From: Candidatus Colimonas fimequi | GTDB taxonomy: Bacteria; Bacillota; Clostridia; Peptostreptococcales; Anaerovoracaceae | Assembly (NCBI GenBank): GCA_018065295.1 | Contig: JAGHTQ010000177.1 | Span: 1 to 36,971 of the forward strand | Length of the DNA stretch: 36,971 bases | Direction of reading: 5' to 3' | Shown: positions 1,732 through 32,312 of the stretch, one piece after another | Position numbering within the stretch: the stretch's first letter is position 1 | Layout of the letters: every line of letters starts with the position of its first letter | Notes under the pieces: model-generated | What the model saw: the letters and a program-made list of their open reading frames with translations, nothing else | Told to the model about the DNA's origin: nothing | The model's database searches: none | Program-made: the position numbers and the translations under genes

Positions 1732-3232
1732 ACTGGACCTTAAGAGCTTAATATTTAAGACCTGGGCATATTTCGTCCTGTTCACACTGGTCCTGGTTAT
1801 TATTATCTGGAGTCTTCAGGTGCTCTTTTTGAACAACTTCTACGAGAGCATGAAGATTCGTCAGACCAACACCGCCATTGAGGCACTGACAACGGCTCAC
1901 GCCGAGAAGCGTTCGCCTCAGTTTATGGAGCGCGTTGAAGACCTGGCTAACGACAACGACCTTTACGTTTATCTGATTAATAACGATGGTAAGACTATGG
2001 CTTTCCAGCCATACGACGAGGTGTCTGGAGCTGGTCACTATTACGACCAAATTGAAACCCTAGATAAGTACCTGGCTAAGTCTGACAAGAAGAGCGTCAT
2101 GCTGAGAATCAAGGGAATCGATAACACCAAGGAAGTTCTGTCATATGCCAGCTACCTGCAGCGACAGGGACGAATTTCCTACAGCGTGTATCTGTTCTCC
2201 CCACTCTGGCCGGTTAATTCAACCATGCGGATTCTCACCTTCCAGATGATATACGTCACGCTGATTGCCCTTCTCTTCGCAGGATTGTTATCACTTTACC
2301 TGTCCAGAAGAATCACAAGGCCAATCAGACTTATTGCAAGATCCGCCGAGAGACTTGGCGCCGGCGAGTACGGCATCGTATTCAAGGGTGGACATTACAC
2401 AGAGATCAACAATCTGGCTGACACACTCACCCAGACATCCATTGAACTTGAGAAGTCGGCAGCATCTCAGAAGGACCTGGTTGCTAACGTATCTCACGAC
2501 CTTAAGACTCCGCTGACCATGATCAAGTCTTACGCGGAGATGATCCGTGACCTGTCAGGGGACAACCCTGTCAAGAGAGAACAGCACCTTCAGGTTATCA
2601 TCGATGAGACAGATAGACTCAACTCTTTGGTTAACGACCTGCTGACTGTTTCCAAGATGCAGTCAAATAAGATTGAACTGGACATCCACGAATTCAACCT
2701 GACTAAGGCTGCACAGTCCATCGTGAATACATTCGCTATTCGCGAAGAGGACGGCTACCACGTTAACTTCAGCTGCCCATCAGAATTCTATGTGAGCGGC
2801 GACGAAGATAGAATCAAACAGGTAATTTCAAACCTTATCGGCAACGCTATCAAGTTCTGCGGAGAAGACAGAACAGTAAACGTCTCACTTAAGAGACGCG
2901 GCTTCAACAAGGTCTTCTTCAGCGTTGAGGATAACGGCGTCGGTATCGCAGAAGACGAGCTGGAACACGTTTGGGAGAGATATTACAAGGCAAGTTCTAA
3001 CATGGTTAGAACTACTGAAGGCTCAGGCCTTGGCCTTTCTATTTGCAAAGAAATCCTGGTCCTCCACAAGGCCGAATACGGGGTTGACAGTACCCTTGGC
3101 AAGGGTACAATGTTCTGGTTTGAACTTAACCTGACACAGATTGATGAGACTCCAGTTGCACCGCAGTTTACTTTGGTCGATGGTAGTTTCACCGTAATAG
3201 AAGACAAGAAAGAAGAACAAGACGATGAGTAA
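1721..3232 (+). CDS. HAMP-domain sensor histidine kinase
   Basis: TTG start overlapping the regulator; two TM helices; HAMP; H-box SHDLKTPLT; N-box NLIGNAIKF; G1 DNGVGI; G2 GSGLGL. Confidence 0.95.
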   Translation: MKHKLDLKSLIFKTWAYFVLFTLVLVIIIWSLQVLFLNNFYESMKIRQTNTAIEALTTAHAEKRSPQFMERVEDLANDNDLYVYLINNDGKTMAFQPYDEVSGAGHYYDQIETLDKYLAKSDKKSVMLRIKGIDNTKEVLSYASYLQRQGRISYSVYLFSPLWPVNSTMRILTFQMIYVTLIALLFAGLLSLYLSRRITRPIRLIARSAERLGAGEYGIVFKGGHYTEINNLADTLTQTSIELEKSAASQKDLVANVSHDLKTPLTMIKSYAEMIRDLSGDNPVKREQHLQVIIDETDRLNSLVNDLLTVSKMQSNKIELDIHEFNLTKAAQSIVNTFAIREEDGYHVNFSCPSEFYVSGDEDRIKQVISNLIGNAIKFCGEDRTVNVSLKRRGFNKVFFSVEDNGVGIAEDELEHVWERYYKASSNMVRTTEGSGLGLSICKEILVLHKAEYGVDSTLGKGTMFWFELNLTQIDETPVAPQFTLVDGSFTVIEDKKEEQDDE

Positions 3233-4055
3233 ATGTTTAATTGACTGTGATTTTCATACGCACACAGGATTCAGCGACGACTGCTACGTTGAATTCGATA
3301 CAATGATTGAAGGCGCTATTGCCGCTGGAATCAAGACTCTTGCAGTTACAGACCACTATGATCCTGGCTATCCCGATCCAGAATTCCCGTTCACTTTGGA
3401 ATTCGACGAATACCACAAGACACTTAACGAGGCACGTGAGCGTTACGAAGGTATCATCGATATTCGCAAGGGTATGGAGATTGGTATCTGGGGCGGCATG
3501 TTCGACGAGAAGACTAGCAATCTTCAGGAAGCTGACAGAGCCGTTAACGCTAATGATCACGACTACATCATCGGATCATTTCACTGCATGAGGAAGGACG
3601 ATTTATATCGTTACGATTTCAGCAAGGCTGATGGTCCTGCGGAACTTGAAGATTTCTATAAGTTCATGTACGAATCACTGTCAGAATATAAGAATTTTGA
3701 CGTAATGGGTCACTTCAGCATCATCGACAGATACATCGGTAAGATTTATGATTACAGTCCTGTTGAAGATACCATCGACGAAATACTGAAGATGCTTATC
3801 GCAGATGGCAAAGGAATTGAAATCAACACTTCAAGTTTCAAGTACGGCACAGGCATCTGGCTGCCAAGAGAGAGCATCCTTAAGAGATACCTTGACCTTG
3901 GTGGTGAAATTCTCACATTCGGCTCTGATGCTCATGAGCCTAAGTACTATCAGTACCACTTTAATGATGCTATAGAGCTTGCTAAATCAATTGGATTCAA
4001 GTACTACTGCACATTTAAGGATCGTAAGCCTGAATTTCACAACATGCCAGAATAA
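3225..4055 (+). CDS. PHP-family phosphoesterase (HisJ-type histidinol-phosphatase family)
   Basis: DFHTHT, TDH, GMEIG, GSFH, EINTS, GSDAH metal-binding motifs; overlaps the kinase stop. Confidence 0.85.
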   Translation: MSKCLIDCDFHTHTGFSDDCYVEFDTMIEGAIAAGIKTLAVTDHYDPGYPDPEFPFTLEFDEYHKTLNEARERYEGIIDIRKGMEIGIWGGMFDEKTSNLQEADRAVNANDHDYIIGSFHCMRKDDLYRYDFSKADGPAELEDFYKFMYESLSEYKNFDVMGHFSIIDRYIGKIYDYSPVEDTIDEILKMLIADGKGIEINTSSFKYGTGIWLPRESILKRYLDLGGEILTFGSDAHEPKYYQYHFNDAIELAKSIGFKYYCTFKDRKPEFHNMPE

Positions 4056-4071
4056 AACAACATTGATACAA

Positions 4072-4110
4072 AAAAACTCCGAAGGATCGACCCTTCGGAG
4101 TTTTTATTTT
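4072..4110. terminator. Bidirectional intrinsic terminator
   Basis: AAAAACTCCGAAGG-loop-CCTTCGGAGTTTTT between convergent genes. Confidence 0.85.
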
Positions 4111-4186: not shown

Positions 4187-5275
4187 TTATGCGAGTACTT
4201 CCTTTAATACTTCCAGGAATACCTTGCAGTCGTCTGGATAAATTTCGCCCATGTTAGCAACCTGGAACATTCCCATTGCTTCGAACTTGCCCTTACCAGC
4301 ATATACTGTGTAGCCCTTAGCATCCAGTGCTTCGATGAATGCGTTCAGATCCTTACCTTCTGGAAGGAATACTGAAGTTACTGTGCTTGACATCTTATCT
4401 TCGTCGATGAGGAACTTAAGACCCATTTCCTTCATGCCAGCTCTCAGGATACCAGCACATTCCTTATATCTAGCATTTCTAGCTTCGATTCCGCCATCAG
4501 CCAGAGCGTTGTCAAGAGCAACGTCCAGAGCCCAGAACAGGTTAACGTTTGGAGTGTTAGGAGTCTGGTTGCAAGCTTCAGCCTTCTGATAGTGCTTAGC
4601 CAGGTTCAGGTATACGTTCTTACCCATTTCTGGAGTCAGAGTATCCATAGCTGCCTTCTTACCGCAGATGTAAGCTGAACCAGGGTATGCGCCCAGGCAC
4701 TTGCCGCCTACTGATGTAGCGAATGTAATGTTCATAGCCTTGATGTCGATGATTTCACCAGCTGCTGCTGATACGCAGTCAACGTGATACCACTTGTCAT
4801 ACTTCTTAGCCAGATCACCAACAGCCTGTACTGGGTTGATCATGCAAGTTGAAGTTTCGTGGAATACCATTGCGATAACCTTGATTGCAGGGTCAGCCTT
4901 AAGAGCTTCTTCTACCTTAGCAAGGTCAGGTTCTTCTGCCCATTCGAATTCACAGTCAACGAGTGGAATGTTGTACTTCTGGATGATCTCAAGAAGTCTG
5001 TTACCGAATTCGCCGTTTCTGATAAGGAGAATCTTCTCGCCTTCGTTGAAGATTGATGACAGAACTGTTTCGTTTGCTGATGTACCTGAACCTGAGATCA
5101 GAACTGATCTGTATTCTTCGTCAGCCTTGAACAGCTGGTTGATCTTAGCTGTTGTTCTAGCGAAGAGTTCTTCGAATTCAGGGCTTCTATGGCAAATGTC
5201 ATAGTGTGTCAGAGCCTGTCTTACGTTTTCCTTTACCATAATTGGACCTGGGCTGAATAATTTAGGTGCGCTCAT
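4187..5275 (-). CDS. Class-V PLP-dependent aminotransferase-family enzyme (PhnW/SPT-AGT-like), atypical active site
   Basis: FSPGP, ICHRSPEF, SGSGT, NGEFG, HETST, VDCVS (PLP Asp), GGKCLG (PLP Lys), TPNTP; the usual C-terminal FRI motif reads FQV. Confidence 0.88.
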   Translation of the reverse strand: MSAPKLFSPGPIMVKENVRQALTHYDICHRSPEFEELFARTTAKINQLFKADEEYRSVLISGSGTSANETVLSSIFNEGEKILLIRNGEFGNRLLEIIQKYNIPLVDCEFEWAEEPDLAKVEEALKADPAIKVIAMVFHETSTCMINPVQAVGDLAKKYDKWYHVDCVSAAAGEIIDIKAMNITFATSVGGKCLGAYPGSAYICGKKAAMDTLTPEMGKNVYLNLAKHYQKAEACNQTPNTPNVNLFWALDVALDNALADGGIEARNARYKECAGILRAGMKEMGLKFLIDEDKMSSTVTSVFLPEGKDLNAFIEALDAKGYTVYAGKGKFEAMGMFQVANMGEIYPDDCKVFLEVLKEVLA

Positions 5276-5351
5276 TTTGATTACTTCCTTTCAAATGAAA
5301 AATATTTAAGGTTTATTTGTTATATGTAAGTTTTATTGTTTGTCAATAATT

Positions 5352-6848
5352 CTATTCTTCTGACCAGTTCTTAGCTCTCTCTACAGCTCTGTGCCAGTTG
5401 TAGAGGAGAGATTCTCTCTCGTCAACGCTCATCTTAGGCTCGTATCTCTTAGCAAGCTTCCATGTTCTCTCAAGCTCGTTAATTGAATTGAATTCGCCGA
5501 TACCAAGAGCTGCCAGCTGTGCTGCTCCAAGAGCTGTTGTATCCTTGATAACTGGAACGTCTACAGGAATACCCATCAGGTCTGCCTGGAACTGCATGAG
5601 GAAGTTGTTAGCTGAAGCTCCGCCGTCAACTCTCATAATTGAAATAGGCATTCCCGAATCCATATTCATTACGTCAAGGTTATCCTTGATCTGATAAGCA
5701 GTTGATTCAAGTGTTGCTCTAACAATGTGTTCTCTAGTAGTACCACCAGTGATACCAACCATTGTTCCTCTAGCGTATGAATCCCAGTGTGGTGCAGCAA
5801 GTCCTGTGAATGCAGGAACGAAATATACACCGCCATTTGAGCCAGCTCTATAAGCCATCTCTTCTGTCTGAGCTGCATTATCGATAATCTTAATGCCATC
5901 TCTCAGCCACTGAGTTGCTGCGCCAGTGATATAAACACCACCGTCAAGAGCGAATGTCATCTTATTGTTAAGTCTCCATGCTACTGTTGTGAGCAGGCCA
6001 TCCTTAGAATATACAGCCTTATCACCAGTGTTCATGAGCATGAAGCCGCCTGTACCATATGTACACTTAGTTGCACCCGGCTTGAAGCATGCCTGACCAA
6101 ACAGTGCTGCCTGCTGGTCAACAACTGAACCTGAAATAGGAATTCTAGCTCCGCAGAAATCCAGTGGATCAGTTTCGCCGTAAACCTGTGCACTATCACA
6201 AATCTCAGGAAGGATTGACTTGTCAATTCCCAGAATGTCCAGAATTTCGTCATCCCACTTGCCTGTGTGAATATTAAGCATCATTGTTCTTGATGCTGTT
6301 GATGCATCTGTAACATGAACACGACCGTGTGTCATCTTCCAGATAAGCCATGTATCGAGAGTACCAGCCAGAGCTCTTCCAGCCTTGATCTTATCCTTAA
6401 CGCCTTCAACATTATCAATGATCCACTTGATCTTAGGACCACTGAAATATGAATCAGCCATGAGACCTGTCTTCTCCCTTATCATTTCCCCATACTGAGC
6501 AGTGAGTTCGTCAGCATATCTTGCCATTCTTCTATCCTGCCAAACGATAGCATTGTAGAATGGCTGGCCAGTTACACTGTCCCACATCATTACTGTCTCG
6601 CCCTGGTTATCAAGACCAATGCAAGCAACATCTGATGCGTCTACACCACCAATTTCAAGAGCCATGTTCATAGACTCCATAACTCTCTGCCAGAGTTCAA
6701 GTGGGTCATGTTCTACGCAGCCTGGCTTCGGATAATGCTGCGTGTGTTCCTTATAACCTCTCGCAACAATGTTCCAGTTCTCATCAAGAAGCAACGTAGT
6801 TGTACCTGTTGTTCCCTGGTCCAATCCGATGTAATACTTCTTCTTCAT
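5352..6848 (-). CDS. glpK: Glycerol-kinase-like FGGY kinase with altered substrate pocket
   Basis: DQGTTGT, NAIVWQDRR, DSYFSG, TDASTASRTM, DQQAALFGQ, TYGTG, VPAFTGLAAPHW, RVDGG; canonical GITNQRET reads GLDNQGET. ATG 6848 follows GAAGGA; an in-frame TTG lies at 6854. Confidence 0.85.
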   Translation of the reverse strand: MKKKYYIGLDQGTTGTTTLLLDENWNIVARGYKEHTQHYPKPGCVEHDPLELWQRVMESMNMALEIGGVDASDVACIGLDNQGETVMMWDSVTGQPFYNAIVWQDRRMARYADELTAQYGEMIREKTGLMADSYFSGPKIKWIIDNVEGVKDKIKAGRALAGTLDTWLIWKMTHGRVHVTDASTASRTMMLNIHTGKWDDEILDILGIDKSILPEICDSAQVYGETDPLDFCGARIPISGSVVDQQAALFGQACFKPGATKCTYGTGGFMLMNTGDKAVYSKDGLLTTVAWRLNNKMTFALDGGVYITGAATQWLRDGIKIIDNAAQTEEMAYRAGSNGGVYFVPAFTGLAAPHWDSYARGTMVGITGGTTREHIVRATLESTAYQIKDNLDVMNMDSGMPISIMRVDGGASANNFLMQFQADLMGIPVDVPVIKDTTALGAAQLAALGIGEFNSINELERTWKLAKRYEPKMSVDERESLLYNWHRAVERAKNWSEE

Positions 6849-6899
6849 TTGCAATTCCTTCCTTCGATAAATACTCTAGTTGTTCTATATGTATTGTCA

Positions 6900-7781
6900 T
6901 CAGTTGTCAGTAGAAATGTAATCATCGATCTTCGAATAATCAAGTCTACTAAAAAGGTTCTTTCTGAATTCACCTGATGAACAGTGAATCAGTTTCTTGT
7001 ACATTCGATTCATGTGTGCATGATCGAAGAATCCGCTATCAATAGCAATATCGACCAGCAGCATGTTTCTGTCTTCGATAATCTTATCCATAGAAATCTG
7101 AAGACGAATTATCTGTGAAAAAAGCTTCGGTGAAACACCTACGCACTTCTCGAATGCCTTACCAATGTGTCTTGAAGTGAAACCGGTTTCTTCAGCCAGG
7201 GCTTCCACCTTGATATTACCCTGTGTCTGGAATATTCTCTCAGTACAGTATTTAACCAGATATTTGTTGGTTTCTGTTCTGAAATTTACTCTTATCACCT
7301 TAGATATAAGTCTGATACGTTCAGTAAGCTCGGTTTCTCTCTCAAGAATTGATACAATCTGATCTCCCCAAGGAACAGTTCCCTGAAGTGGAATCGCTCT
7401 GTTTGCAATACTTCCAGCAGTTTCGCCAATGAGACCATTGCCGATTCCTGGAAGGAATCGCATTATTATATAGTATTCGTCAGGATTAATGACAATCTTC
7501 TTGATTTCATCAGTAACCCCGCAAAGATATGCCTTGGTTTTATCCTGGTTAGCAGAAAATACCAGAGCCATGCAGCCATCGGGTACGATAGGCACAGTCT
7601 GCGGATCTTCAGCCCTTGAACTGATGTAGTAAATGTCTGCAACCGTTGTATATAGAGGATGTCCGAAAGCCACATCAATCCTCTTCATCTCCAGTCCTTC
7701 GTCATCAAATACCAGTGGTTCGTATTGAGTTTTCTCTTCATTCGGAGCTAAATACTGCTTCCTGCTTATTACAAATGACAT
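6900..7781 (-). CDS. AraC-family transcriptional regulator
   Basis: N-terminal IVPDGC sensory domain; C-terminal double HTH (LAEETGFTSRHI, VGVSPK, IAIDSGFFDHAHM). Confidence 0.9.
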   Translation of the reverse strand: MSFVISRKQYLAPNEEKTQYEPLVFDDEGLEMKRIDVAFGHPLYTTVADIYYISSRAEDPQTVPIVPDGCMALVFSANQDKTKAYLCGVTDEIKKIVINPDEYYIIMRFLPGIGNGLIGETAGSIANRAIPLQGTVPWGDQIVSILERETELTERIRLISKVIRVNFRTETNKYLVKYCTERIFQTQGNIKVEALAEETGFTSRHIGKAFEKCVGVSPKLFSQIIRLQISMDKIIEDRNMLLVDIAIDSGFFDHAHMNRMYKKLIHCSSGEFRKNLFSRLDYSKIDDYISTDN

Positions 7782-7831
7782 TTGTACCCTTCCAAATAGT
7801 AAAAAACGGAATAGTGGTTTCTTTCAATTTA

Positions 7832-7860
7832 ATGATAACATTGTATGAATATAAGGTCAA
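7832..7860 (-). promoter_or_regulatory. sigma70-type promoter for the AraC-kinase-PLP enzyme unit
   Basis: Minus strand TTGACC-17 nt-TATCAT with extended TG. Confidence 0.6.
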
Positions 7861-7976
7861 TGTCTTGTTTTTCCTATCCCTTCGTACTTATGTTTGTGTA
7901 TAATTCTAGTATCTGTTGATAGTGTGGCGATATAGCTAAACTAGTTACACTGTTGAATATAGGAGGACTTAGCCAG

Positions 7977-8375
7977 ATGGAAGCATTAATGGGTATGGAT
8001 CCTGATAAGATGGTCATCGTACTTCCATCAGGATTGGTCGCAATGTATGCGATAATCACAATACAGAAATCACTTTCTCAGAAGGACAATAAATATCTTG
8101 GAATGATAATTCCAGTAGCTTGCTTCATTGCAGCTACAATACTCGCCGTTAGACCAATGCTCATCACAACTCCAGGAGAGATTGCAGGTCTTGGCTCATA
8201 CTGTTTGAGAATGTGGTTAACATTTAACATTCCTACAATAATCTTCACTTTTTCTTACATATATACAAGAAGAAGAGAGAAGGCTTGGAAGGAAGAAGTC
8301 GCTAGATGGGAAGCTGAGCAGGCAGCTGAAGGCAATGCCGACTCACCGTCTGAAACAGACGTGACAACTGAATAG
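7977..8375 (+). CDS. Small membrane protein (3 predicted TM helices, acidic tail)
   Basis: AGGAGG at 7961-7966, ATG 7977; hydrophobic segments; LSQKDNKYLGMIIP loop. Confidence 0.7.
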   Translation: MEALMGMDPDKMVIVLPSGLVAMYAIITIQKSLSQKDNKYLGMIIPVACFIAATILAVRPMLITTPGEIAGLGSYCLRMWLTFNIPTIIFTFSYIYTRRREKAWKEEVARWEAEQAAEGNADSPSETDVTTE

Positions 8376-8467
8376 GAACGCGACACCTTTGCACATGATT
8401 ATAAACGGTCAGTTGTTATCGTTTTATAATAGTATTATTCATTATTTTTTATTCATTATTTTTTAGG

Positions 8468-10036
8468 ATGTATAGTGCAATGCAGAACACTAACAAAGCA
8501 CAGGGCCTGAACAGAACTCTGGGCCTGGCTGAATGTATCACTATTACAGCCGGTGCTGTAATCGGTGTAGGCCTCTTCACAGTAGGTTCACAGATCGTAG
8601 GTCTGATGGGCGGTACTGTAATCGTGGCATCATTAATCTCATTCGTACTCGTACTCTTCCCATGCGCAATGTATGGTGAAATGGGTGCAGCTCTCCCACT
8701 CGCAGGTGGTACTTACTCATTTGCTAAGAGAGCAATCAATTATCCTGTAGCCGTATTTGAAAGCTGGAACTACACTCTGGCTCAGATCGGTATCGGTGCA
8801 TCAGAATCAATGGCATTCTCAAACTACTTCGTAAGACTGCTGAATGCTCTTGGCATGAACATTCCTGTAGATGACAATGACTATTCAATCATCGCTTTCT
8901 TCCAGGGACAGTGTGATGCATCAGTATTCATGTGGAAAGCACTCCCAGCAATCGGTCTTTTCATCCTGTTCACTTACATCTCATACAGAGGTGCTGAAAT
9001 GAACGGTAAGACTCAGAACTTCTTCATGTTCTTCTTCTGGGCTTGCTCACTCGTATGGTTCGCAACAGTAATCGCTAAGGCAGACTTCTCAGGCGTAACT
9101 GAAATGGTTGCTGGCGTTGGTATCCCTCACGGTGTTAACGCATTCGCTCAGGCTGTACTGCTCGTACTGTGGTGCTTCTTCGGTTTCGAAACTATCGTTG
9201 GTATGGGTTCCGAAGTTAAGTTCCCTCAGATTACTCTTCCTAGAGCTCTGCTGCTCACTCCATTCTGCGTACTGGCAGTTAACCTCTTATTCCAGTGGTT
9301 CCTGTGCGCACTGACTCCAGCAGAACACATTCCTGACCTGTACACTGCAGCAGCTCCATATGCATCAGCTATGGAATACGCTGGTATTGTTGGTCTCCCA
9401 CTTATCATCCTTTGCTTAGGTATTACTCTTGGTGGTGACTTCTCAACAATGAACCCATGTATCGCAGGTCCTGCTCGTTACATCTACATCATGGCTAATG
9501 ACGGTAACTTCCCAAGATACTTCGGCGCTGTACACAAGAAGTACAACTCACCACACAGAGCAGTTATCCTTTGCGCAGTACTTGGTATCTTCTTCATCAT
9601 TTCAGGTTCAATTAAGATCGTTGCAATGATGTGCGCATACAACCAGATTCAGTCATACATCATCGGCTACATCTCATTCTACATGCTTCGTAAGAAGGAA
9701 CCAGATCTCCACAGACCTTGGAAGTGCCCATGCGGTACATTCGCTTGCGTATTCTCATGCGTAACATTCGGTCTGCTCCTGATCCTGGCATACGATCCAG
9801 TTGCTATCTGGTACAACATCGTATGGGATATCCTGGCAATCGCTTACTACTTCCTCTATGTTCGTAAGAGACCTATCCCACAGGATGCTCTGGACGTAGA
9901 AGCAGAAGCACTGGCAGCTAAGGCTCCAAACGCTGAAGAAAAGGCTGCACTGGATAAGGAATTCAAGCTGTGGAGAGTAATCGCTCCTGCATTCGCAATC
10001 GTAGGCGTACTCCTCTTCGTAATTTCATGGATCTAG
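8468..10036 (+). CDS. APC-superfamily amino acid/amine permease
   Basis: LNRTLG, GAVIGVGLF (TM1), GEMGAALPLAGGTYSF, FFGFET (TM6), RKKEPDLHRPWKCP; about 12-13 hydrophobic segments. The start could be ATG 8480. Confidence 0.92.
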   Translation: MYSAMQNTNKAQGLNRTLGLAECITITAGAVIGVGLFTVGSQIVGLMGGTVIVASLISFVLVLFPCAMYGEMGAALPLAGGTYSFAKRAINYPVAVFESWNYTLAQIGIGASESMAFSNYFVRLLNALGMNIPVDDNDYSIIAFFQGQCDASVFMWKALPAIGLFILFTYISYRGAEMNGKTQNFFMFFFWACSLVWFATVIAKADFSGVTEMVAGVGIPHGVNAFAQAVLLVLWCFFGFETIVGMGSEVKFPQITLPRALLLTPFCVLAVNLLFQWFLCALTPAEHIPDLYTAAAPYASAMEYAGIVGLPLIILCLGITLGGDFSTMNPCIAGPARYIYIMANDGNFPRYFGAVHKKYNSPHRAVILCAVLGIFFIISGSIKIVAMMCAYNQIQSYIIGYISFYMLRKKEPDLHRPWKCPCGTFACVFSCVTFGLLLILAYDPVAIWYNIVWDILAIAYYFLYVRKRPIPQDALDVEAEALAAKAPNAEEKAALDKEFKLWRVIAPAFAIVGVLLFVISWI

Positions 10037-10070
10037 TCGGTAACAGATAATAGTATTTAAGGAGTTAATA

Positions 10071-10211
10071 ATGAACAGATTTTGGGGAACAATAGCATTC
10101 GTATTTTTAATGATATTAGCAACTGCAGGTATGGCAGCATACGTTATGCAGAATGCACTTGGTGAGAACATCACATTCGTTGAGTTCTTCCAGCGCTATG
10201 TCTTCAAATAG
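10071..10211 (+). CDS. 46-aa single-TM small protein (not in the ORF track)
   Basis: AAGGAG RBS, ATG 10071, MNRFWGTIAFVFLMILATAGMAAYVMQNALGENITFVEFFQRYVFK, TAG 10209-10211; lies between the permease and its terminator. Confidence 0.75.
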   Translation: MNRFWGTIAFVFLMILATAGMAAYVMQNALGENITFVEFFQRYVFK

Positions 10212-10243: not shown

Positions 10244-10278
10244 AAAAGAGGTTCGATTTAATTATCGAACCTCTTTTT
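10244..10278. terminator. Bidirectional intrinsic terminator (copy 1)
   Basis: AAAAGAGGTTCGAT-TTAATT-ATCGAACCTCTTTT. Confidence 0.85.
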
Positions 10279-10819
10279 AATAATTCTCTTTTCTTATTTC
10301 GAAGTACCCCTGCGGATGCTTACACACTGGACATTCCAGTGGGGCGGTGGCGCCGGTCGCCACGTGTCCGCAGTTTCTGCATTCCCAGATAGTAACGCCG
10401 CCTTTCTTGAACACTTCCATATTGCTAACGTTATTATACAATGCACAATATCTTTCTTCGTGGGTCTTCTCGATGGCCGCTACGCCTCGAAACTGTTCTG
10501 CCAAATCTGCGAATCCCTCTTCCTCAGCTTCGCGGGCCATTCTGTCATACATTTCAGTCCACTCTGTATTCTCTCCCGCCACTGCCTGAAGCAGATTCTC
10601 GGGTGTATCATTCAGCTGGCCAAGAGCTTTAAACCAAAGTTTCGCGTGCTCCTTTTCATTCTCTGCAGTCTGCAGGAAGATAGCCGCAATCTGTTCGTAT
10701 CCAGCTTTCTTTGCAACTGATGCGAAATACGTATACTTATTTCTCGCCTGCGATTCTCCTGCGAATGCTTCCCAAAGATTTTTCTCAGTCTTAGTTCCTT
10801 CATATATATTTTTAGCCAT
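10277..10819 (-). CDS. rbr: Rubrerythrin
   Basis: AAGGAG RBS, ATG 10819; [35 protein letters not shown] diiron motifs; C-terminal CRNC...CPVC rubredoxin-like site. Confidence 0.95.
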
Positions 10820-11714
10820 GGTATGTCTCCTTCCACAGTCCATGCAGATTGCAATATGCATATGCCGCCACAACTTCATCGCCGTCTGTCAGTGTAAACT
10901 TTGCACATGGCTTCTCGCCTGGAATCAGCGCTTTGCGCTGGGCGCCTTTATCCGTCTCCAGCGCAATCCACTGGATGTAATGAACGTCCTCCATAGGATG
11001 TTCTACTTCGCCAACCTTAACCGTTACCAGATTCCCCTCTACATTGATTACTGGCACGTGCTTCTCTAGCGCGCCATCTGTAGTTCCTGGCACAACCTCA
11101 GTCATAGGATGGCCACAGCACATCATAGAAACTCCCGACTCATTGATCATTCCAACAAAATTACCACATTGTTCGCATACATAAAATTTCATATCTGACT
11201 TCCTTTCTTTATCAACACTCGCCTTGGGCTGTGCACCAGGCTTCGGCTTAATGTTTGCCATATAATATGCATATGTAGCTGATGGCACATCAGAGAGCAC
11301 CTGCATATCAGTAACAGTTGCAATAAACATGGTGTGTGAACCCAGGTCAACCAGCTTAGCTACCTGACATGAGATGTACCCATTAGTCCCTTCGGTAATG
11401 TAATATGCACCATTGGCACCTCTTGTCATGCCATCAAAACCATTGAATTTATCCACATTTCTTCCCGACTGAAAACCAAATCTCTTGAACATGTCGAAGG
11501 ATGCCTCTTCACTGATAATTGATATCGTGAATGCGCCAGCCTCCTTAACCATGTCATGTGTGTAATTCGACTTATTAATACATACACTAATCTGATTAGG
11601 TTCTGATGCAGCCTGGATAGCCGTGTTGGTAATGCAGCCATTGTCCTTGTCGCCAAGACTTACAGTCAGCACGAAAAGTCCATAACTAAGTTTATACATA
11701 GCTTTATTATCCAT
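10812..11714 (-). CDS. Flavin-reductase-like domain fused to desulfoferrodoxin (2Fe superoxide reductase)
   Basis: N-terminal [35 protein letters not shown]; C-terminal CEQC...MCCG (centre I), [19 protein letters not shown] (centre II); AGGAGG RBS. Confidence 0.9.
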
Positions 11715-18233: not shown

Positions 18234-19553
18234 CTAGTAACGCTTACGCTTCTGTGATGAGAAAATGCCGATTTCTTCTCGATACTTAGCAACTGTTCTT
18301 CTAGCAATGTCAATGCCCTTGCCAACCAGATGCTCCGCAATCTTCTGATCGCTAATTGGTTTCTTAGGATCTTCGTTATCAACCAGTTCCTTAATCATCT
18401 CCTTAATCGCCTTCGATGATACGTCTTCGCCGTCTCTTCCTGATACGCCGCTTGTGAAGAAATACTTCAGTTCGAATACACCTCTTGGAGTCTGAATATA
18501 TTTACCATTAATGGTTCTGCTGACTGTAGACTCGTGAACGTTTACCTGTTCAGCGATCTGTCTGAGAATCAGCGGTTTCAGGTGCTTCTCACCCTGGCTA
18601 AAGAATTCTTCCTGATAATCAACAATCGCCTTAGAAACATTATAAATAGTGTTACGGCGCTGCTCGATACTATCAATCAGCCATCTAGCCGCTTTGATTC
18701 TCTCAAGAAGATAATCAGTCAGTTCTTCATTGTCCTTGTTACCTTCAAGAAGATCCATGTAGTACTGATTAACAGCAACACCTGGCTTACTGCTCTCACT
18801 GAGAGTCAGCTTGTACTCGCCGTTGACTTCTTCAAGATAAACGTCAGGAGTGATATATCTAGTCTCTTCTGATGAAGCGAATGCTCTTCCCGGCTTAGGA
18901 TCGAGAGTCTTGATTTCGTCAGATATCTTCTGGATAGTTTCAACGCTTGTCTTGTTAGCCTTGGCAATCTGCTGAAGTCTATTGAGTGCCAGTTCCTCAA
19001 GATGATTCTTGATTACTCTTGCCTTGAGATTAGAGCATGAACCTTTAGCCTTAAGCTGAAGGAGGAGACACTCTGGGATATTACGTGCTCCAACACCTGC
19101 TGGTTCGAAACTTCTCAGAACTCTAATAGCTCGGTGCACTGTTTCACCTGAGCAATTCTCGATCTCTGCGATTTCATCGATTGACTGCTTAAGATATCCG
19201 TTATCATCGAGAGTATCAATGAGATATTCGCACACCCTAATTACACCCTTAGGCGCCTTAACGAACTGGAGCTGATGGAGAAGATGCTCGCTGAGAGTCT
19301 CTTCATTCAAGTTAAACTGCTTGAATGGAGTACCCTGTGGTTTCTCCTTCCTAAATCCTGTAGAAGTGCTGTAATTCTCTCTAACGATGAGATCCTTCTC
19401 AAGGACAGGATTTGCCAGAACCTGTTCATCAACGTAACGTTCAAGCTCAGTAGAATTAAGCTGAAGAATCTTGATAGCCTGAACCATTTCCTGGGTTAGG
19501 TTTAGTTTTTGAGTCTGTTCAATTGTCAGGTCAAATTTCATATTCATAGACAT
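18234..19553 (-). CDS. rpoN: RNA polymerase sigma-54 factor
   Basis: Region I Q/L-rich (QAIKILQL), NPVLE, LDDNGYL, EPAGVGAR, DPKPG, HESTVSR, ELKYFF, RpoN box ARRTVAKYRE. The start could be ATG 19547. Confidence 0.97.
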   Translation of the reverse strand: MSMNMKFDLTIEQTQKLNLTQEMVQAIKILQLNSTELERYVDEQVLANPVLEKDLIVRENYSTSTGFRKEKPQGTPFKQFNLNEETLSEHLLHQLQFVKAPKGVIRVCEYLIDTLDDNGYLKQSIDEIAEIENCSGETVHRAIRVLRSFEPAGVGARNIPECLLLQLKAKGSCSNLKARVIKNHLEELALNRLQQIAKANKTSVETIQKISDEIKTLDPKPGRAFASSEETRYITPDVYLEEVNGEYKLTLSESSKPGVAVNQYYMDLLEGNKDNEELTDYLLERIKAARWLIDSIEQRRNTIYNVSKAIVDYQEEFFSQGEKHLKPLILRQIAEQVNVHESTVSRTINGKYIQTPRGVFELKYFFTSGVSGRDGEDVSSKAIKEMIKELVDNEDPKKPISDQKIAEHLVGKGIDIARRTVAKYREEIGIFSSQKRKRY

Positions 19554-24742: not shown

Positions 24743-26248
24743 TTAACCGAAACTTCTCACATCATTGAGCATCAGCAGTGCATTATCATCACCGAGATTT
24801 ATTCTCTTGTAGAGAGCTTCTTCTACATCTGATGCGATTGCAGCGATGTCTTCTGGATCAACCATATCTGTGCAGTATGTAAGCATGCTTATTGCCGCTT
24901 CAGGGAATGTCCAGATGTCACGGTTCTCACATGCCATCATGAACGCCTTGCCATAAAGGGCTACTGCAAATTCTTCGTCCTTCTCTATTTCCCCACTCCT
25001 ATATAAATCAGCGATCATAATTGTCGCATTGATATCATTAAGAAGAGCCGCCTTGTCCCAGCAAGCCTTAGCCTTATTAAAATCAGGCATTGTTCCATTA
25101 CCGAAATAAAAGCAGTTTCCCAGCCAGCTGACAGCTGTGATGTTATGATCAGCAGCTGCGCTCTGCAGGAGCATGAAAGCTTCTGCGTACTCACCTCTGT
25201 GATATAGCTCGATAGCATTTAATGTATCGATCTGATCCTGAGTCTTAGGCTGCAGGTCATTAAGCATCGCTTCTACGATTTCCTGTGGGACAAGTATACC
25301 ATCACCCCATGGATTAATAGCAACGCCACTACAGCCTTCAATCTCAACAGCCTTCTGCATAAGTTCGACCATCGGAATCACATCAGCTGATGATGCTTCA
25401 CCTTTAGCCTTCTCCCTGTTATTTGTGAAGCAAGCCAGCAGGTTAACACCCTCATCTGTCTCGATTATCTGGAAAAGCACATCTTCTTCATCAGTGCCCT
25501 GATTCTCATATTTAATAGGAACGATAACCTTAAGTCCACCCTTCAGTTCTTCGAAAAGTACGTCAAGAACTGCATCTGGTTCATCGTCAAAATCGTTAGC
25601 ATGCCACTTAGTTAATGCTTCTTCGAGAGCCGGACATCCATCAACGTATGGATTGTCGTCCTCTTCATTTGAGAAAACATTGTTGATTACTGCACTTGGA
25701 AATTCTTCTTCGAAGGCTTCCCCTTCATCGCCGAGGATTCTCTCAGCAATCTTGTTGCCCATTGCAAAGCCTATATCATCGATAACGCAGAAGAAAACTT
25801 CCATGTCGTAATAACTGCACATATCCAGGAAGTCTGAGCATGACATGATAGCTTCTTCCCACGCCTCTTCCTTAGGATAGCCGTAGATACCAGATGAAAT
25901 CAGCGGGAATGCAATCGAGTGACATTCATTCTCCATTGCTCTCATAAGTGAACTTCTATACGCATTGTAGAGATCCATCTGTTCTCCATTATTGCCGCCC
26001 TGCCAGATAGGACCAACCGCGTGAATGATGTACTTAGCTGGAAGGTCAAATCCAGGTGTGATTACAGCTTCACCAGTAGGACATCCGCCTATAGCATTGC
26101 AGGCCGCCTGTAACTTCTCATGTCCAGCCTTACGGAATATTGCGCCGCATACCCCGCCACCTGCGCGCAGTCCAGAGTTTGCTGCGTTAACAATACAGTC
26201 AATGTGCATTGTTGTTATATCCTGTTTCTTAATGTTAATTGAACTCAT
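24743..26248 (-). CDS. Macro domain (MacroD/YmdB-like) + SseB-like domain + SEL1 repeats
   Basis: DIT...IVNAAN..L..GGGVCGAI, IIHAVGP, AFPLISSGIYGYP; middle segment LLACFTN...GVAINPWG (SseB-like); SEL1 repeats LGNCFYFGNG..D..KA..W.KAA. Confidence 0.82.
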   Translation of the reverse strand: MSSINIKKQDITTMHIDCIVNAANSGLRAGGGVCGAIFRKAGHEKLQAACNAIGGCPTGEAVITPGFDLPAKYIIHAVGPIWQGGNNGEQMDLYNAYRSSLMRAMENECHSIAFPLISSGIYGYPKEEAWEEAIMSCSDFLDMCSYYDMEVFFCVIDDIGFAMGNKIAERILGDEGEAFEEEFPSAVINNVFSNEEDDNPYVDGCPALEEALTKWHANDFDDEPDAVLDVLFEELKGGLKVIVPIKYENQGTDEEDVLFQIIETDEGVNLLACFTNNREKAKGEASSADVIPMVELMQKAVEIEGCSGVAINPWGDGILVPQEIVEAMLNDLQPKTQDQIDTLNAIELYHRGEYAEAFMLLQSAAADHNITAVSWLGNCFYFGNGTMPDFNKAKACWDKAALLNDINATIMIADLYRSGEIEKDEEFAVALYGKAFMMACENRDIWTFPEAAISMLTYCTDMVDPEDIAAIASDVEEALYKRINLGDDNALLMLNDVRSFG

Positions 26249-29810: not shown

Positions 29811-31001
29811 TTAAGGCACCTGAACAAGTGGCGCCAGGTCGAAATGAACGAAGGTCTCGTCGATTTCTTCCCATTCGTATATACCATTTTCAATAAAATA
29901 CTTAATTATTGTATCACTAAGGCTGCTTGGGGACAATGCATGGCCCGCTCTTGCCAGCAGGTCAACAGTCTCATCAAGATTAAGTTTCAGCGTGATAGCC
30001 AGAATAAGAACCGTATTCTTCTTGGGCACAGACTGACCATTGATAATCTTATTAAATGTCTGCTTAGACATGCATGCGTTGGTGTATACCCAAGGATTAT
30101 CGAGGAGTCTACCGTCAATCAGCCTCTGCAGCTTATCTGCAAAGGATTCACTAACCTGGAATCTCAGTTCATCAAGAGATCTTGTTTCGCTTCTCTTGGT
30201 CTTCTTCCATCCAAAGATTGAGTGTCGCTTCTGAGTTACCTTAGTCTGCTGTTTCTCCAGCTCTGCCTTCTTCGCATCTGTGATTGACAGTTCCGCCTTC
30301 GGCGCCATATTGGCCTGAGGCTGAACGCCGCCTACGACAGGAATGCCAATGCTGGTTTCTGACTCCATGTACTCAGACTCGTCGAAATATACTGGCTCAT
30401 TGTCAGCAGTCACACCATAGGATACAGATTCTTCAGCTACGAAGGACTCCCTGGCGCAAATCTCTTGCTCTACAATAAGGTTCTCGTCTATATATGATTC
30501 CACCTTGCCATATACGTCTTCAGTAGCCTTAACCGATTCGTCATCAAAGACTACAAGGTATACATCAATTTCATGTTCAGCAAGGAACTTACGGATTTCG
30601 CTCATGGCAAGAGCCAAGGCAATTGACTTAGGGAATCCGAAGGTTCCTGAAGCAAGAAGCGGAATAGCAATGCTGCTGCACTCCATGTCATAAGCACACT
30701 GAAGAGCCTTGCTATAGCAGCTTCTGATAATGTCAACCTCGCCTTCAGCGCCACCTCGCCACTTAGTACCCACAACATGAATGATGTACTTGGCTGGAAG
30801 TTCGAACCCTTCGGTAATTGCAACCTGTCCAGGCTGCATCTGTCCAATCATGCTTCGGGCTTCCATGAGCTGGCGCACACCAGCTGCATGGTATACTGCA
30901 CTGTCAGTTCCACGACCGAATGTTGGCTGTCTATTGGCAGTGTTGACTATAGCGTCAACCTGCGTTTTTGTAATATCATTTCTTATAATTGTTAATGACA
31001 T
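29811..31001 (-). CDS. Macro domain fused to a C-terminal XRE-like HTH domain
   Basis: NDITK...AIVNTAN, IIHVVG, IAIPLLASGTFGFP; C-terminal SFADKLQRLID...SKQTFNKI...PKKNTVLILAITLKLNLDETVDLL..AG.ALSPS; AGGAG RBS. Confidence 0.8.
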   Translation of the reverse strand: MSLTIIRNDITKTQVDAIVNTANRQPTFGRGTDSAVYHAAGVRQLMEARSMIGQMQPGQVAITEGFELPAKYIIHVVGTKWRGGAEGEVDIIRSCYSKALQCAYDMECSSIAIPLLASGTFGFPKSIALALAMSEIRKFLAEHEIDVYLVVFDDESVKATEDVYGKVESYIDENLIVEQEICARESFVAEESVSYGVTADNEPVYFDESEYMESETSIGIPVVGGVQPQANMAPKAELSITDAKKAELEKQQTKVTQKRHSIFGWKKTKRSETRSLDELRFQVSESFADKLQRLIDGRLLDNPWVYTNACMSKQTFNKIINGQSVPKKNTVLILAITLKLNLDETVDLLARAGHALSPSSLSDTIIKYFIENGIYEWEEIDETFVHFDLAPLVQVP

Positions 31002-31049
31002 CCCAGCTCCTGATTCTTATTTCTCGCACGTATTGTGCTTCACAGTAAA

Positions 31050-31081
31050 TAAGTAAATAAGGACCGGTCTTTACCGGTCCT
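31050..31081 (-). terminator. Intrinsic terminator after telA
   Basis: AGGACCGGT-4 nt-ACCGGTCCT followed by TATTTACTTA on the minus strand. Confidence 0.65.
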
Positions 31082-31094
31082 CAGATTAACTTGC

Positions 31095-32285
31095 TTATCT
31101 AGTGCCTGCTTCCAGCATCTTAGCCTTAAGCTGGTTCTCGATGTTTGCCAGTTCAAGTTCTGCCTGCTGTCTCTTCTCACGACCTTCGTTCTGAATCTTC
31201 AGGATATCGTCGATAGTAGCGATGAGTTCTTCGTTAGTGTGCTTGAGAGTCTCCATGTCTACGATGCCACGTTCGTTCTCCTGAGCAACTTCAACTGAAC
31301 TCTGGTGAAGCAGTTCTGCATTCTTCTTGAGAATGTCGTTAGTTGTATCTGTAACCATTCTCTGAGCCTTGATAGCTTCCTGGCTGTGTGCCAGACCCAT
31401 TGTGATTACCAGCTGGTTCTTCCACATTGGGAGTGTGTTAACAAGTGTTGAATGAATCTTATCACTGAGGATAATAGCGTTTGACTGTACCAGTCTAATC
31501 TGTGGTGCATTCTGCAGGCAAACAGTTCTAGTCAGGTCAAGATCGTGAAGCTTCTTCTCGAAACGTTCGCACATTGAAGCGTAGTCTGTTACTGCCTGAG
31601 CATCTTCAGCAAGACCAGTTTCCTGAGCCTTAGCCTTAAGCTGTGGGAGAGTCTCTTCCTGAGCCTTCTTAAGAGCTACCTTACCAGCAGCGATGTACAT
31701 TGTCAGTTCCTTGAAGTAGATCTTGTTGTTCTCATAGAGCTTGTCCTGAGTTGCAATATCCTTAAGGAGAGTCTGCTGATGAGCTTCCAGCTTAGCTGCG
31801 ATAGCATCGATGTTAGTCTCAACCTTAGCATAGTGAGCCTTAACGCTCTCTGCCTTGTTAGCCTTCTTGTTAAACATATCCTTGAAGAAGCCCTGCTTCT
31901 CGTCTGGATCATACTTAAGGTCAGCTACCAGACCGCTGAGGAGTGGTCCGATTTCGCTCATGTCCTTAGTTCTCATCTGCTTGAGAGCTTCGTCACTGAA
32001 GTTAGCCAGTCTCTGCTGTGCTCCAGCGCCGTATGAATTAATGATGTTACTATCGTTAAGGTCAATCTTCTCTGCGAAGTCGTTAATCTGCTTAACTTCT
32101 TCTTCTGAGAACTGCTGCATTCTGAATGCTTCAGCGTCCTTAACTTCCATCTGCTCTACCACTTCACTATCAATTGAATCTAATGAAAGTGTAGGCATGA
32201 TCAGTTCGATATTAGCGTCCTTAACTTCTGGTGCAGGTGCTTCTGCCTGTGCAACTGCCTGTGTCTGTAACTGAATTTCTGACAT
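31095..32285 (-). CDS. telA: TelA/YaaN toxic anion resistance protein
   Basis: YGAGAQ, ELTMYIAAG, FEKKLHDLDLTR, APQIRLVQ, NTLPMWKNQL, TNDILKKNAELL, ERGIVDMETL; AGGAG RBS, ATG 32285. Confidence 0.92.
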   Translation of the reverse strand: MSEIQLQTQAVAQAEAPAPEVKDANIELIMPTLSLDSIDSEVVEQMEVKDAEAFRMQQFSEEEVKQINDFAEKIDLNDSNIINSYGAGAQQRLANFSDEALKQMRTKDMSEIGPLLSGLVADLKYDPDEKQGFFKDMFNKKANKAESVKAHYAKVETNIDAIAAKLEAHQQTLLKDIATQDKLYENNKIYFKELTMYIAAGKVALKKAQEETLPQLKAKAQETGLAEDAQAVTDYASMCERFEKKLHDLDLTRTVCLQNAPQIRLVQSNAIILSDKIHSTLVNTLPMWKNQLVITMGLAHSQEAIKAQRMVTDTTNDILKKNAELLHQSSVEVAQENERGIVDMETLKHTNEELIATIDDILKIQNEGREKRQQAELELANIENQLKAKMLEAGTR

Positions 32286-32312
32286 CCTTATTCTCCTCTC
32301 GTAACCTTCCAA

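Follow-up and report, generated by a model that had tools for sequence, protein, structure and literature searches.

A 36,971-nt stretch of Candidatus Colimonas fimequi (GCA_018065295.1, contig JAGHTQ010000177.1, positions 1–36,971 of the forward strand; hereafter the window) carries six genes that form a real, conserved and co-regulated system assembled from known families. The most probable role of this module, to which we give a probability of about 0.55, would be the catabolism of serinol (2-amino-1,3-propanediol): import, phosphorylation by a GlpK-like kinase with a glycine in place of Arg83, and transamination of serinol phosphate to dihydroxyacetone phosphate (DHAP). A preliminary description of this DNA had already placed serinol first. 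That reading is still the best supported overall; its residue argument is weaker than stated, and the support comes mainly from gene context, i.e. the EutH-like and EtoX-like importers, a paralogue of glycerol-3-phosphate (G3P) oxidase that replaces the aminotransferase, and glycolytic neighbours.

The six open reading frames (ORFs) and their division into two divergent units, as first described, were confirmed. In the minus-strand unit the order is araC, kinase, aminotransferase, and in the plus-strand unit membrane protein, APC permease, 46-aa ORF. Except for those of a metagenome scan, the counts out of 80 loci given here and below rest on a GTDB scan in which the best 80 of 143 relatives were kept.

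4187–5275, minus strand: class-V pyridoxal phosphate (PLP) enzyme (PF00266) with the fold of 2-aminoethylphosphonate (AEP) transaminases, predicted serinol-phosphate aminotransferase
5352–6854, minus strand: GlpK paralogue (FGGY kinase) above the GlpK cut-offs, with the signature G-E-Y-D-F and Gly85 for Arg83, predicted serinol kinase
6900–7781, minus strand: AraC-family regulator (DUF6597 and HTH_18 in Pfam; 45 of 80 loci), predicted to control both units
7953–8375, plus strand: small membrane protein of no known family, probably accessory (26 of 80 loci, confined to close relatives)
8468–10036, plus strand: APC-superfamily permease (PF13520; 38 of 80 loci), predicted amino-alcohol importer
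10071–10211, plus strand: 46-aa ORF with a single transmembrane segment, possible transporter subunit (23 of 80 loci, always behind the APC gene)

In the proposed pathway, serinol would be imported by the APC permease or, in other genomes, by EutH-like, TRAP or ABC importers. The kinase, which would keep the three-carbon pocket of GlpK (Glu84, Tyr135, Asp245, Phe270, Trp103) without the Arg83 that would clash with an ammonium group at C2, would then phosphorylate it. Serinol phosphate is phosphoserine with its carboxyl group reduced to CH2OH; the PLP enzyme would grip its phosphate by His29-Arg30, as a phosphoserine aminotransferase does, the free CH2OH sitting at Gln338. The amino group would pass to a keto acid, and DHAP would enter glycolysis through triose-phosphate isomerase, which is encoded in the source genome. 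In some genomes, a flavin-dependent paralogue of G3P oxidase would carry out the third step by oxidative deamination.

Conservation of the module

The co-occurrence of the kinase with the class-V enzyme had been proposed as a test of the module, and the module passes it, a GlpK-like kinase being present in 59 of the 80 loci. All six genes are found together in 23 loci, and the aminotransferase, kinase, AraC and APC genes in 37. This recurrence excludes a chance arrangement, and the linkage of kinase and aminotransferase persists through rearrangements. The reverse test started from the best-scoring kinase loci, sorted by the residue aligned with Arg83 of GlpK. Within the order, an aminotransferase gene lies within 1.5 kb for 8/8 Gly-type and 0/21 Arg-type kinases, and within the class for 5/9 and 0/20, respectively; the two samples overlap (G500), and kin among them are not independent.

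The module is patchily distributed, with carriers amounting to 11 of 36 genomes of the same genus and a single close member among 400 genomes taken across the phylum. According to record titles, carriers belong to Bacillota, Synergistota and one spirochaete, some labels of metagenome-assembled genomes looking unreliable. Cultured carriers include Anaerovorax odorimutans, Hominibacterium faecale, Lentihominibacter faecis and Oscillibacter valericigenes. The GC content of the module is in line with that of the remaining window. As metatranscriptomic support, four animal-gut sets were discarded: they contained just 5–7% of the words, and the APC, kinase and aminotransferase genes are matched in part by contigs from relatives, most of them below 95% similarity. 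This shows neither expression nor the habitat of the strain.

Kinase and class-V enzyme

The kinase is 49% identical to Escherichia coli GlpK and, in an alignment to it, retains Glu84, Trp103, Tyr135, Asp245, Gln246 and Phe270. Arg83, Glu84, Tyr135, Asp245 and Phe270 are the specificity positions, identical among GlpK clusters (PMC3245297), and glycerol binding is treated in PMC7765489. Four of these five residues are kept in the window, and the glycerol-binding arginine is indeed lost, as the preliminary description had noticed, Gly85 aligning with Arg83. Among the 65 GlpK-like genes of the 80 loci, the 63 that cover all five positions read G-E-Y-D-F instead of R-E-Y-D-F without exception. 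The aspartate said to be gained is present here (Asp82 at Thr80 of GlpK) but is not invariant, being found in 52 of the 62 kinases that cover the position; Glu303 is replaced by Asp in 61 of 64 neighbour kinases. Taken together, these letters indicate a predicted pocket of glycerol size with one changed position. A tree of 34 kinases places all 13 Arg-type kinases on one side of a 100% branch and the Gly-type kinases on the other, with an unreliable root; as the outgroup-rooted tree has long branches, no order of events is claimed.

The likeness to the GlpK system thus comprises about 50% identity, the FGGY fold family and four of five specificity residues, and three genomes even have a G3P-oxidase paralogue downstream of a Gly-type kinase. 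The differences are Arg83 to Gly, Thr80 usually to Asp and Glu303 to Asp; in addition, importers of amine type take the place of GlpF, the regulator is AraC or DeoR where glp systems have GlpP, and an aminotransferase is linked. In agreement with the first account, glpF, glpD and glpP are absent from the window (27 window ORFs compared with Pfam and 9 with NCBIfam), so that no glpF, glpP or G3P dehydrogenase gene adjoins the kinase gene. A MIP channel gene (C30) and a GlpP-family gene (C175) sit on other contigs of the source genome, in which searches found no second GlpK, the assembly being 88.65% complete.

The AlphaFold model of the PLP enzyme (predicted local distance difference test score 91.5) best matches AEP transaminases, with template-modelling scores of 0.92–0.94 (0.93 to 1m32). 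Lys192, which binds PLP, and Asp166, at its pyridine ring, are invariant in 45 sequences, in keeping with class V of fold type I. However, the enzyme scores below the AEP transaminase model TIGR03301 (287.6 bits for a cut-off of 360.8) and below a second family model (224 versus 296). The claim that it lacks the carboxylate-binding arginine was borne out: it reads FQVANMG where the AEP transaminases of Salmonella, Vibrio and Treponema read FRIGNIG or FRIANIG. Gln338 and Pro239 align with Arg340 and Arg240 of PhnW, which we take to be the phosphonate/carboxylate site, and the glutamine is found in all 80 GTDB loci. A literature search on what these residues do in AEP transaminase yielded no paper. 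The enzyme resembles PhnW and AepZ (1m32, 6pd1) in its fold, its PLP-contacting Lys and Asp and an identity of about 30%, and fusions with PntC-like cytidylyltransferases, of the kind seen in 6pd1, occur among its relatives. It differs from them in both arginines, in its scores, and in that no phosphonate gene recurs nearby: a scan of 95 neighbours in the GTDB loci found no phnX, pepM or ppd. A PntC-AEPT fusion is described in PMC6697681. Judged by the residues that define those systems, the module is neither a GlpK nor a PhnW system.

The PLP enzyme was also compared with the class-V phosphoserine aminotransferase SerC, whose substrate differs from serinol phosphate just by COOH versus CH2OH and whose His-Arg motif can be aligned (SHRGKEF versus CHRS/GxEF). 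SerC is very distant in sequence and, unlike the module enzyme, presumably retains a carboxylate arginine and a second phosphate site.

Beyond the module, 150 distant representatives comprise 59 with Gln at position 338, 74 with Arg and 17 with another letter or no coverage. A tree of 99 sequences requires two changes between Arg and Gln. In this tree, the enzymes linked to importers make up a 97% branch, and the adjacent 98% branch contains biosynthetic Gln-type enzymes. Ten Gln-type proteins among 26 scanned have an NTP-transferase domain, and the gene clusters around three Arg-type hits have N-termini that resemble pepM-ppd-pntC. In a scan of metagenomes, the seed was an NTP-transferase fusion, a choice that biases the counts; 17 of 64 collection parts yielded 518 relatives, of which 80 were kept. 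Gln is found in 77 of these 80 loci, a CDP-alcohol phosphotransferase in 44, a separate NTP transferase in 39 and both in 32, and the phosphoenolpyruvate (PEP) mutase motif in none of the ORFs called there. The resulting triad of Gln-type aminotransferase, CDP-alcohol phosphotransferase and NTP transferase occurs at L203:2865-3641, L193:9958-10710 and some 40 other metagenome loci; lacking PEP mutase, it is a candidate for an undescribed phospholipid head-group pathway. It fits the reversible reaction proposed for the module, run from DHAP, so that one reversible DHAP transaminase would serve both gene sets. A paper on a Mycoplasma penetrans NTase-aminotransferase gives no link to serinol.

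Two other relatives were encountered. A second class-V aminotransferase of the source genome (G000:C227:12663-17753, L234), 24% identical and with the Arg kept, lies beside LicD-like phosphotransferase genes in a cluster that is likely a pathway for surface-polymer decoration. Furthermore, an Eubacterium minutum record (L080:8228-11074, P0314/P0315) carries an in-frame fusion of MurE with a Gln-type aminotransferase that shares 60% identity with the enzyme of the window. This fusion is the sole MurE above cut-off in its genome, which has no GlpK-like kinase, and it recurs in a cluster of 126 sequences.

Substrate and rival routes

The strongest new evidence for serinol is the replacement of the aminotransferase by an oxidase. 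Three loci (L296, L297, L298) carry genes for a DeoR regulator, a EutH-like importer, a Gly-type kinase, a type-II G3P-oxidase-like protein and two partners. No aminotransferase gene lies within 18–19 kb of them, and the best hit in their genomes is 27% identical or missing. Their EutH proteins are 61–75% identical to the EutH beside the Clostridioides kinase-aminotransferase pair. With a fourth locus, the oxidases are as follows.

L296:10412-13529, L297:4844-8008, L298:9671-12786 and L064:10915-12426: distinct type-II G3P-oxidase paralogues beside Gly-type kinases, candidate serinol-phosphate oxidases

These four flavoproteins form their own 100% branch, at which long branches meet, opposite 23 flavoproteins found beside Arg-type kinases; in three of them, the stretches with His, Lys, Arg and Ser that align with Mycoplasma G3P oxidase are retained. 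One genome (G1103) has the EutH-kinase-oxidase set in addition to a canonical glpF-glpK-oxidase set. G3P oxidase, an enzyme of a superfamily of amine oxidases, oxidises its substrate at C2; a paralogue would be expected to convert the C2-amino analogue of that substrate to DHAP and ammonia. A transaminase would give DHAP as well, and both enzymes would converge on DHAP for serinol phosphate only.

Several observations weigh against the serinol route. The kinase exceeds both NCBIfam GlpK cut-offs (648.8 versus 590.35 and 693 versus 498). The residue changes from which the preliminary description had deduced a cationic substrate for the kinase are real, but Asp80 and Gly83 also occur together in E. 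coli AraB (ribulokinase) and RhaB (rhamnulokinase), which act on neutral sugars; therefore, these two letters alone are no proof of a cation. Likewise, the Arg to Gln change that had suggested a carboxyl-free substrate for the PLP enzyme stands, but Gln is common among distant relatives, many of which are fused or linked to cytidylyltransferases in seemingly biosynthetic clusters. The invariant His29-Arg30 pair aligns weakly (7.3 bits) with His41-Arg42 of E. coli SerC, which we take to be its phosphate site, and binding of a keto-acid acceptor is hard to account for in the absence of the arginine. A phosphoserine decarboxylase making phosphoethanolamine would explain the biosynthetic triad equally well. 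Two of the importer types are best known for ethanolamine. The glycolytic neighbours are restricted to one small group of relatives and may reflect a rearrangement. Two of the three oxidase genomes (G953, G834) have no GlpK-like kinase other than a Gly-type one beside a G3P-oxidase-like gene; plain glycerol use explains them too. Lastly, 6 of the 80 loci have just a distant xylulokinase-like kinase and 15 have no FGGY kinase nearby. Among these 15, nine end within 2 kb on one side and four have full 10-kb flanks; five of the genomes were searched, and three have a Gly-type kinase elsewhere, one no kinase with a readable Gly motif and one no GlpK-like gene.

The importers vary between loci: APC here, EutH-like in Clostridioides, TRAP in L167 and peptide and sugar ABC systems elsewhere. 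The APC permease, held at first to be the importer of the module, does recur but is just one of several types. It falls below the cut-off of every named NCBIfam family, including the ethanolamine permease TIGR00908 (91.6 versus 381.75), and a structure search found no close solved structure for it, nor for the TRAP and ABC binding proteins of L064 and L091. EutH is above its cut-off in L113, L296 and L297, and the TRAP protein of L167 matches PDB 4uab (E 1e-106), whose ligand is, we believe, ethanolamine.

Such importers bring in the leading alternative, to which we nevertheless give a low probability: a B12-free ethanolamine route in which phosphoethanolamine would be split by a phospho-lyase to acetaldehyde and ammonia, or transaminated to glycolaldehyde phosphate, and in which the biosynthetic relatives would decarboxylate phosphoserine to supply CDP-ethanolamine. 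Ethanolamine is plentiful in the gut, a lyase needs no carboxylate arginine, and EutB was found neither in the source genome nor in 5/5 other carriers searched. A HisJ-family PHP phosphatase gene lies near the aminotransferase gene in 24 of 80 loci, mostly of close relatives and including two rearranged ones (L051, L067), and a glycerol dehydrogenase gene behind the aminotransferase in five loci also matches, below cut-off, a glycolaldehyde reductase model. Against it, the kinase keeps its pocket for a third hydroxyl (63/63), no acetaldehyde-handling gene is conserved among recurring neighbours, the oxidase replacement points to three carbons, and expression of the matching genes is uncoupled from that of eut.

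The last point comes from Clostridioides difficile. The proteins of L113 belong to sequence clusters that bear the names of the aminotransferase and the glycerol kinase of C. difficile; a EutH-like gene adjoins, and the set matches CD630_07400, glpK1 and CD630_07420 by names and order in a table of PMC9210968, not by sequence. In the types of its kinase and aminotransferase the C. difficile cluster agrees with the module (54% identity in the Clostridioides locus), but it has a EutH-like importer and DeoR and is annotated as glycerol kinase and ethanolamine transporter. In strain 630, wild type compared with toxin-negative, CD630_07400, glpK1 and CD630_07420 are up by 2.9, 2.4 and 2.3 log units, while glpK2 (−0.03), CD630_07390 (+0.54) and all 18 eut rows (−0.45 to +0.82) are flat; in R20291, eutC (+6.5) and eutH (+5.2) are up and the three orthologues down by 1.3, 0.7 and 0.7, two of them non-significantly (PMC8803604). 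With eut expression flat or opposite, the cluster does not follow the ethanolamine regulon in either strain. glpK1 is the most enriched gene in toxin-producing strain 630 in mice, which the same authors read as ethanolamine use (PMC8803604). Read-through from WalR as the source of the induction was rejected, CD630_07390 being flat. A CcpA site precedes CD0742, although the transcriptome gave no sign of regulation (PMC3510511).

The genes behind the aminotransferase raise two further alternatives, both improbable. A glyceraldehyde-3-phosphate dehydrogenase gene directly follows it in four loci (L018-L021), with pgk-tpi-eno next in the three that are long enough. Like the glycerol dehydrogenase gene of five loci, it is a three-carbon neighbour that favours the serinol route. 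It would also suit a route from 3-amino-1,2-propanediol through its O1-phosphate and transamination to glyceraldehyde 3-phosphate, and AEP transaminases act on primary amines at CH2. However, oxidation at C2 by the G3P-oxidase paralogue would give an amino-ketone outside central metabolism, the loss of Arg83 presumably fits a change at C2 better given the geometry of GlpK, and we know of no natural source of this compound. Alternatively, serinol phosphate may be split by a phospho-lyase to hydroxyacetone, ammonia and phosphate, a step that would need no carboxylate arginine and would give sense to the glycerol/1,2-propanediol dehydrogenase of five loci and to the nearby aldo-keto reductase (L065) and acetoin/pyruvate-dehydrogenase-like complexes (L046, L091). 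Such a lyase would waste the ATP spent and could not serve the biosynthetic triad, and the oxidase replacement would yield DHAP, not hydroxyacetone. A glutamate-dehydrogenase-like gene follows the aminotransferase in L102, in favour of the transamination route. An aldehyde dehydrogenase gene near L026, L037 and L039 was set aside as unrelated; it follows a CoA-transferase-like gene in L138.

Distant loci add genes for M81 and M20 amidohydrolases, opine-dehydrogenase-like and ornithine-cyclodeaminase-like proteins, phosphodiesterase and peptide ABC transporters. These genes, together with the six loci that bear two different Gly-type kinases and the presence of Gly83 in kinases of larger sugars (AraB, RhaB, LyxK), may speak for another amino alcohol, either larger or N-substituted (N-acyl or N-carboxyalkyl serinol, an amino-polyol) or alaninol, for which the Gly83 cavity would give room. 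We hold this to be unlikely, though almost on a par with ethanolamine: Trp103, Tyr135 and Phe270 hold the pocket at glycerol size, a longer product would find no enzyme in the core module, and the accessory hydrolases would more simply free serinol from conjugates. The amidohydrolase, opine-dehydrogenase-like and cyclodeaminase-like neighbours suggest the release of amines from conjugates. In six loci (L065, L078, L082, L084, L089, L094) the aminotransferase is accompanied by a distant kinase of xylulokinase-like type, by an M81 amidohydrolase and, for the most part, by peptide ABC genes; these loci are perhaps a second sub-type for an amide-linked conjugate.

Finally, the kinase might be an ordinary glycerol kinase that has drifted, with the aminotransferase an unrelated passenger. 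Its scores and its being the only GlpK found in the source genome favour this, as do G953 and G834. Yet it is as improbable as the lyase: the R-E-Y-D-F signature, identical across GlpK clusters (PMC3245297), is broken here, four genomes (G1103, G735, G736, G738) own a separate Arg-type kinase, glpK1 and glpK2 of C. difficile are expressed independently of each other (PMC8803604), the importers are of amine type, and the aminotransferase linkage outlasts rearrangements.

Regulation, neighbouring genes and significance

The following signals were found around the two units.

7797–7811, plus strand: conserved 15-bp box, first of two in inverted orientation, predicted to be bound by a regulator; agrees at every position with the pattern TAGKAAAAAWCRGAA
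7862–7876, minus strand: second box of the pair, abutting the −35 hexamer, with 3 mismatches here and 0–2 in relatives
7832–7860, minus strand: predicted sigma-70-type promoter for araC-kinase-aminotransferase (TTGACC, 17 nt, TATCAT, extended −10)
4070–4110, no strand assigned: GC-rich hairpin with A/T tails, likely terminator between the aminotransferase gene and the convergent PHP gene, read from the letters and absent from the list of the terminator scan
10244–10277, no strand assigned: 14-bp hairpin from the terminator scan, likely terminator between the transporter unit and the convergent rubrerythrin gene

The promoter is the best site of its scan (10/12), the totals of the promoter and terminator scans being at chance level, and TTGAC is invariant in 13 aligned upstream regions. 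The inverted box pair, 63–66 bp apart, is found in 33 of 80 loci, a count that is partly circular because the pattern was derived from 13 of the counted regions, and once in the source genome (7797, 7862). It travels with the genes in rearranged loci, standing before both the transporter unit and araC in L052 and before the kinase in L067. This shared pair indicates that the two units form one regulon, and the AraC protein, which has no close paralogue in the source genome, would bind it. A single box is unspecific (with 3 mismatches allowed, the window has 9 matches for an expectation of 7.07, and over 28 genomes the counts stay close to those of controls); therefore, additional boxes at G000 C11 and C245 were rejected as regulon members. 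The C11 locus (G000:C11:16882-22349, L232) has three tandem boxes with a 20-bp period at 19321-19375, resembling the box of the module, among divergent genes for an FGGY kinase, a KduD-like short-chain dehydrogenase, a GlcD-like FAD oxidoreductase and electron-transfer flavoproteins, an arrangement that recalls the ygc cluster of E. coli.

The small membrane protein probably starts at 7977, behind GGAGG; it has at least two hydrophobic segments and no match in Pfam or NCBIfam. At 3225-4055, convergent with the aminotransferase gene, lies the gene for the HisJ-family PHP phosphatase, which overlaps the end of a histidine-kinase gene of a two-component operon; because of this overlap and its occurrence mostly in close relatives, it was dropped as a part of the module. 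Elsewhere in the window, a flavin-reductase-like domain fused to desulfoferrodoxin (10812-11714) is encoded upstream of rubrerythrin, forming an oxygen-stress pair. Two macro-domain proteins (24743-26248 and 29811-33620, one with SseB and Sel1 parts) are encoded in the vicinity of a TelA-family gene and of a 435-aa ORF without annotation, and a class-II tRNA synthetase of the Lys/Asp/Asn type with an extra C-terminal tRNA-binding domain lies at 34970-36904.

Routes in which an amino alcohol is phosphorylated before a PLP step are known: an amino-alcohol kinase is followed by an O-phosphate phospho-lyase in Erwinia/Pseudomonas and, in human, as ETNK and ETNPPL. They differ from the module by an unrelated kinase family, a class-III lyase and a two-carbon aldehyde product. 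Work on the Campylobacter capsule reportedly has serinol phosphate made from DHAP, in the biosynthetic direction, with Cj1437 as the DHAP aminotransferase. Cj1437 and RtxA of Bradyrhizobium, which presumably belong to a different aminotransferase class than the module enzyme, share with it the proposed reversible reaction between DHAP and serinol phosphate, but they run in the biosynthetic direction and have no kinase or importer. The preliminary description placed the known DHAP/serinol-phosphate aminotransferase activity in the biosynthetic direction, in agreement with what is reported of RtxA, which forms serinol phosphate from DHAP (PMC3222319). Human PSAT1 slowly forms serinol phosphate from DHAP as a side reaction (PMC9283133). 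Serinol occurs in a Mycoplasma fermentans glycolipid (PMC3403081) and in the N-acyl serinols of Gemella (PMC11271093; bioRxiv 2025.04.11.648385). Clostridium innocuum is a further known producer of serinol. This natural occurrence of serinol phosphate and of serinol conjugates speaks for the serinol reading. A catabolic serinol route was not found in the literature searched, to which most subscription journals were external, so that its absence is unproven.

If the serinol reading is true, the module would be the first catabolic serinol route, and it would re-annotate a family of 'glycerol kinases' and 'AEP transaminases' whose scores lie above or close to the database cut-offs, including C. 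difficile glpK1. More tentatively, serinol phosphate could be a widespread overlooked bacterial metabolite. Marine and soil bacteria would make it from DHAP with Gln-type class-V aminotransferases, on the way to CDP-serinol and to lipids of the phosphatidyl-serinol type, and gut anaerobes, including C. difficile, would recover it through a dedicated serinol kinase and one of two enzymes, a member of that aminotransferase family or a new flavin oxidase derived from G3P oxidase; we consider this broader view possible but doubtful. As serinol is present in Campylobacter capsule amides, in Mycoplasma glycolipids and in N-acyl serinols acting on the host receptor GPR119, a bacterium that degrades it would, if the reading holds, close a loop in gut chemistry.

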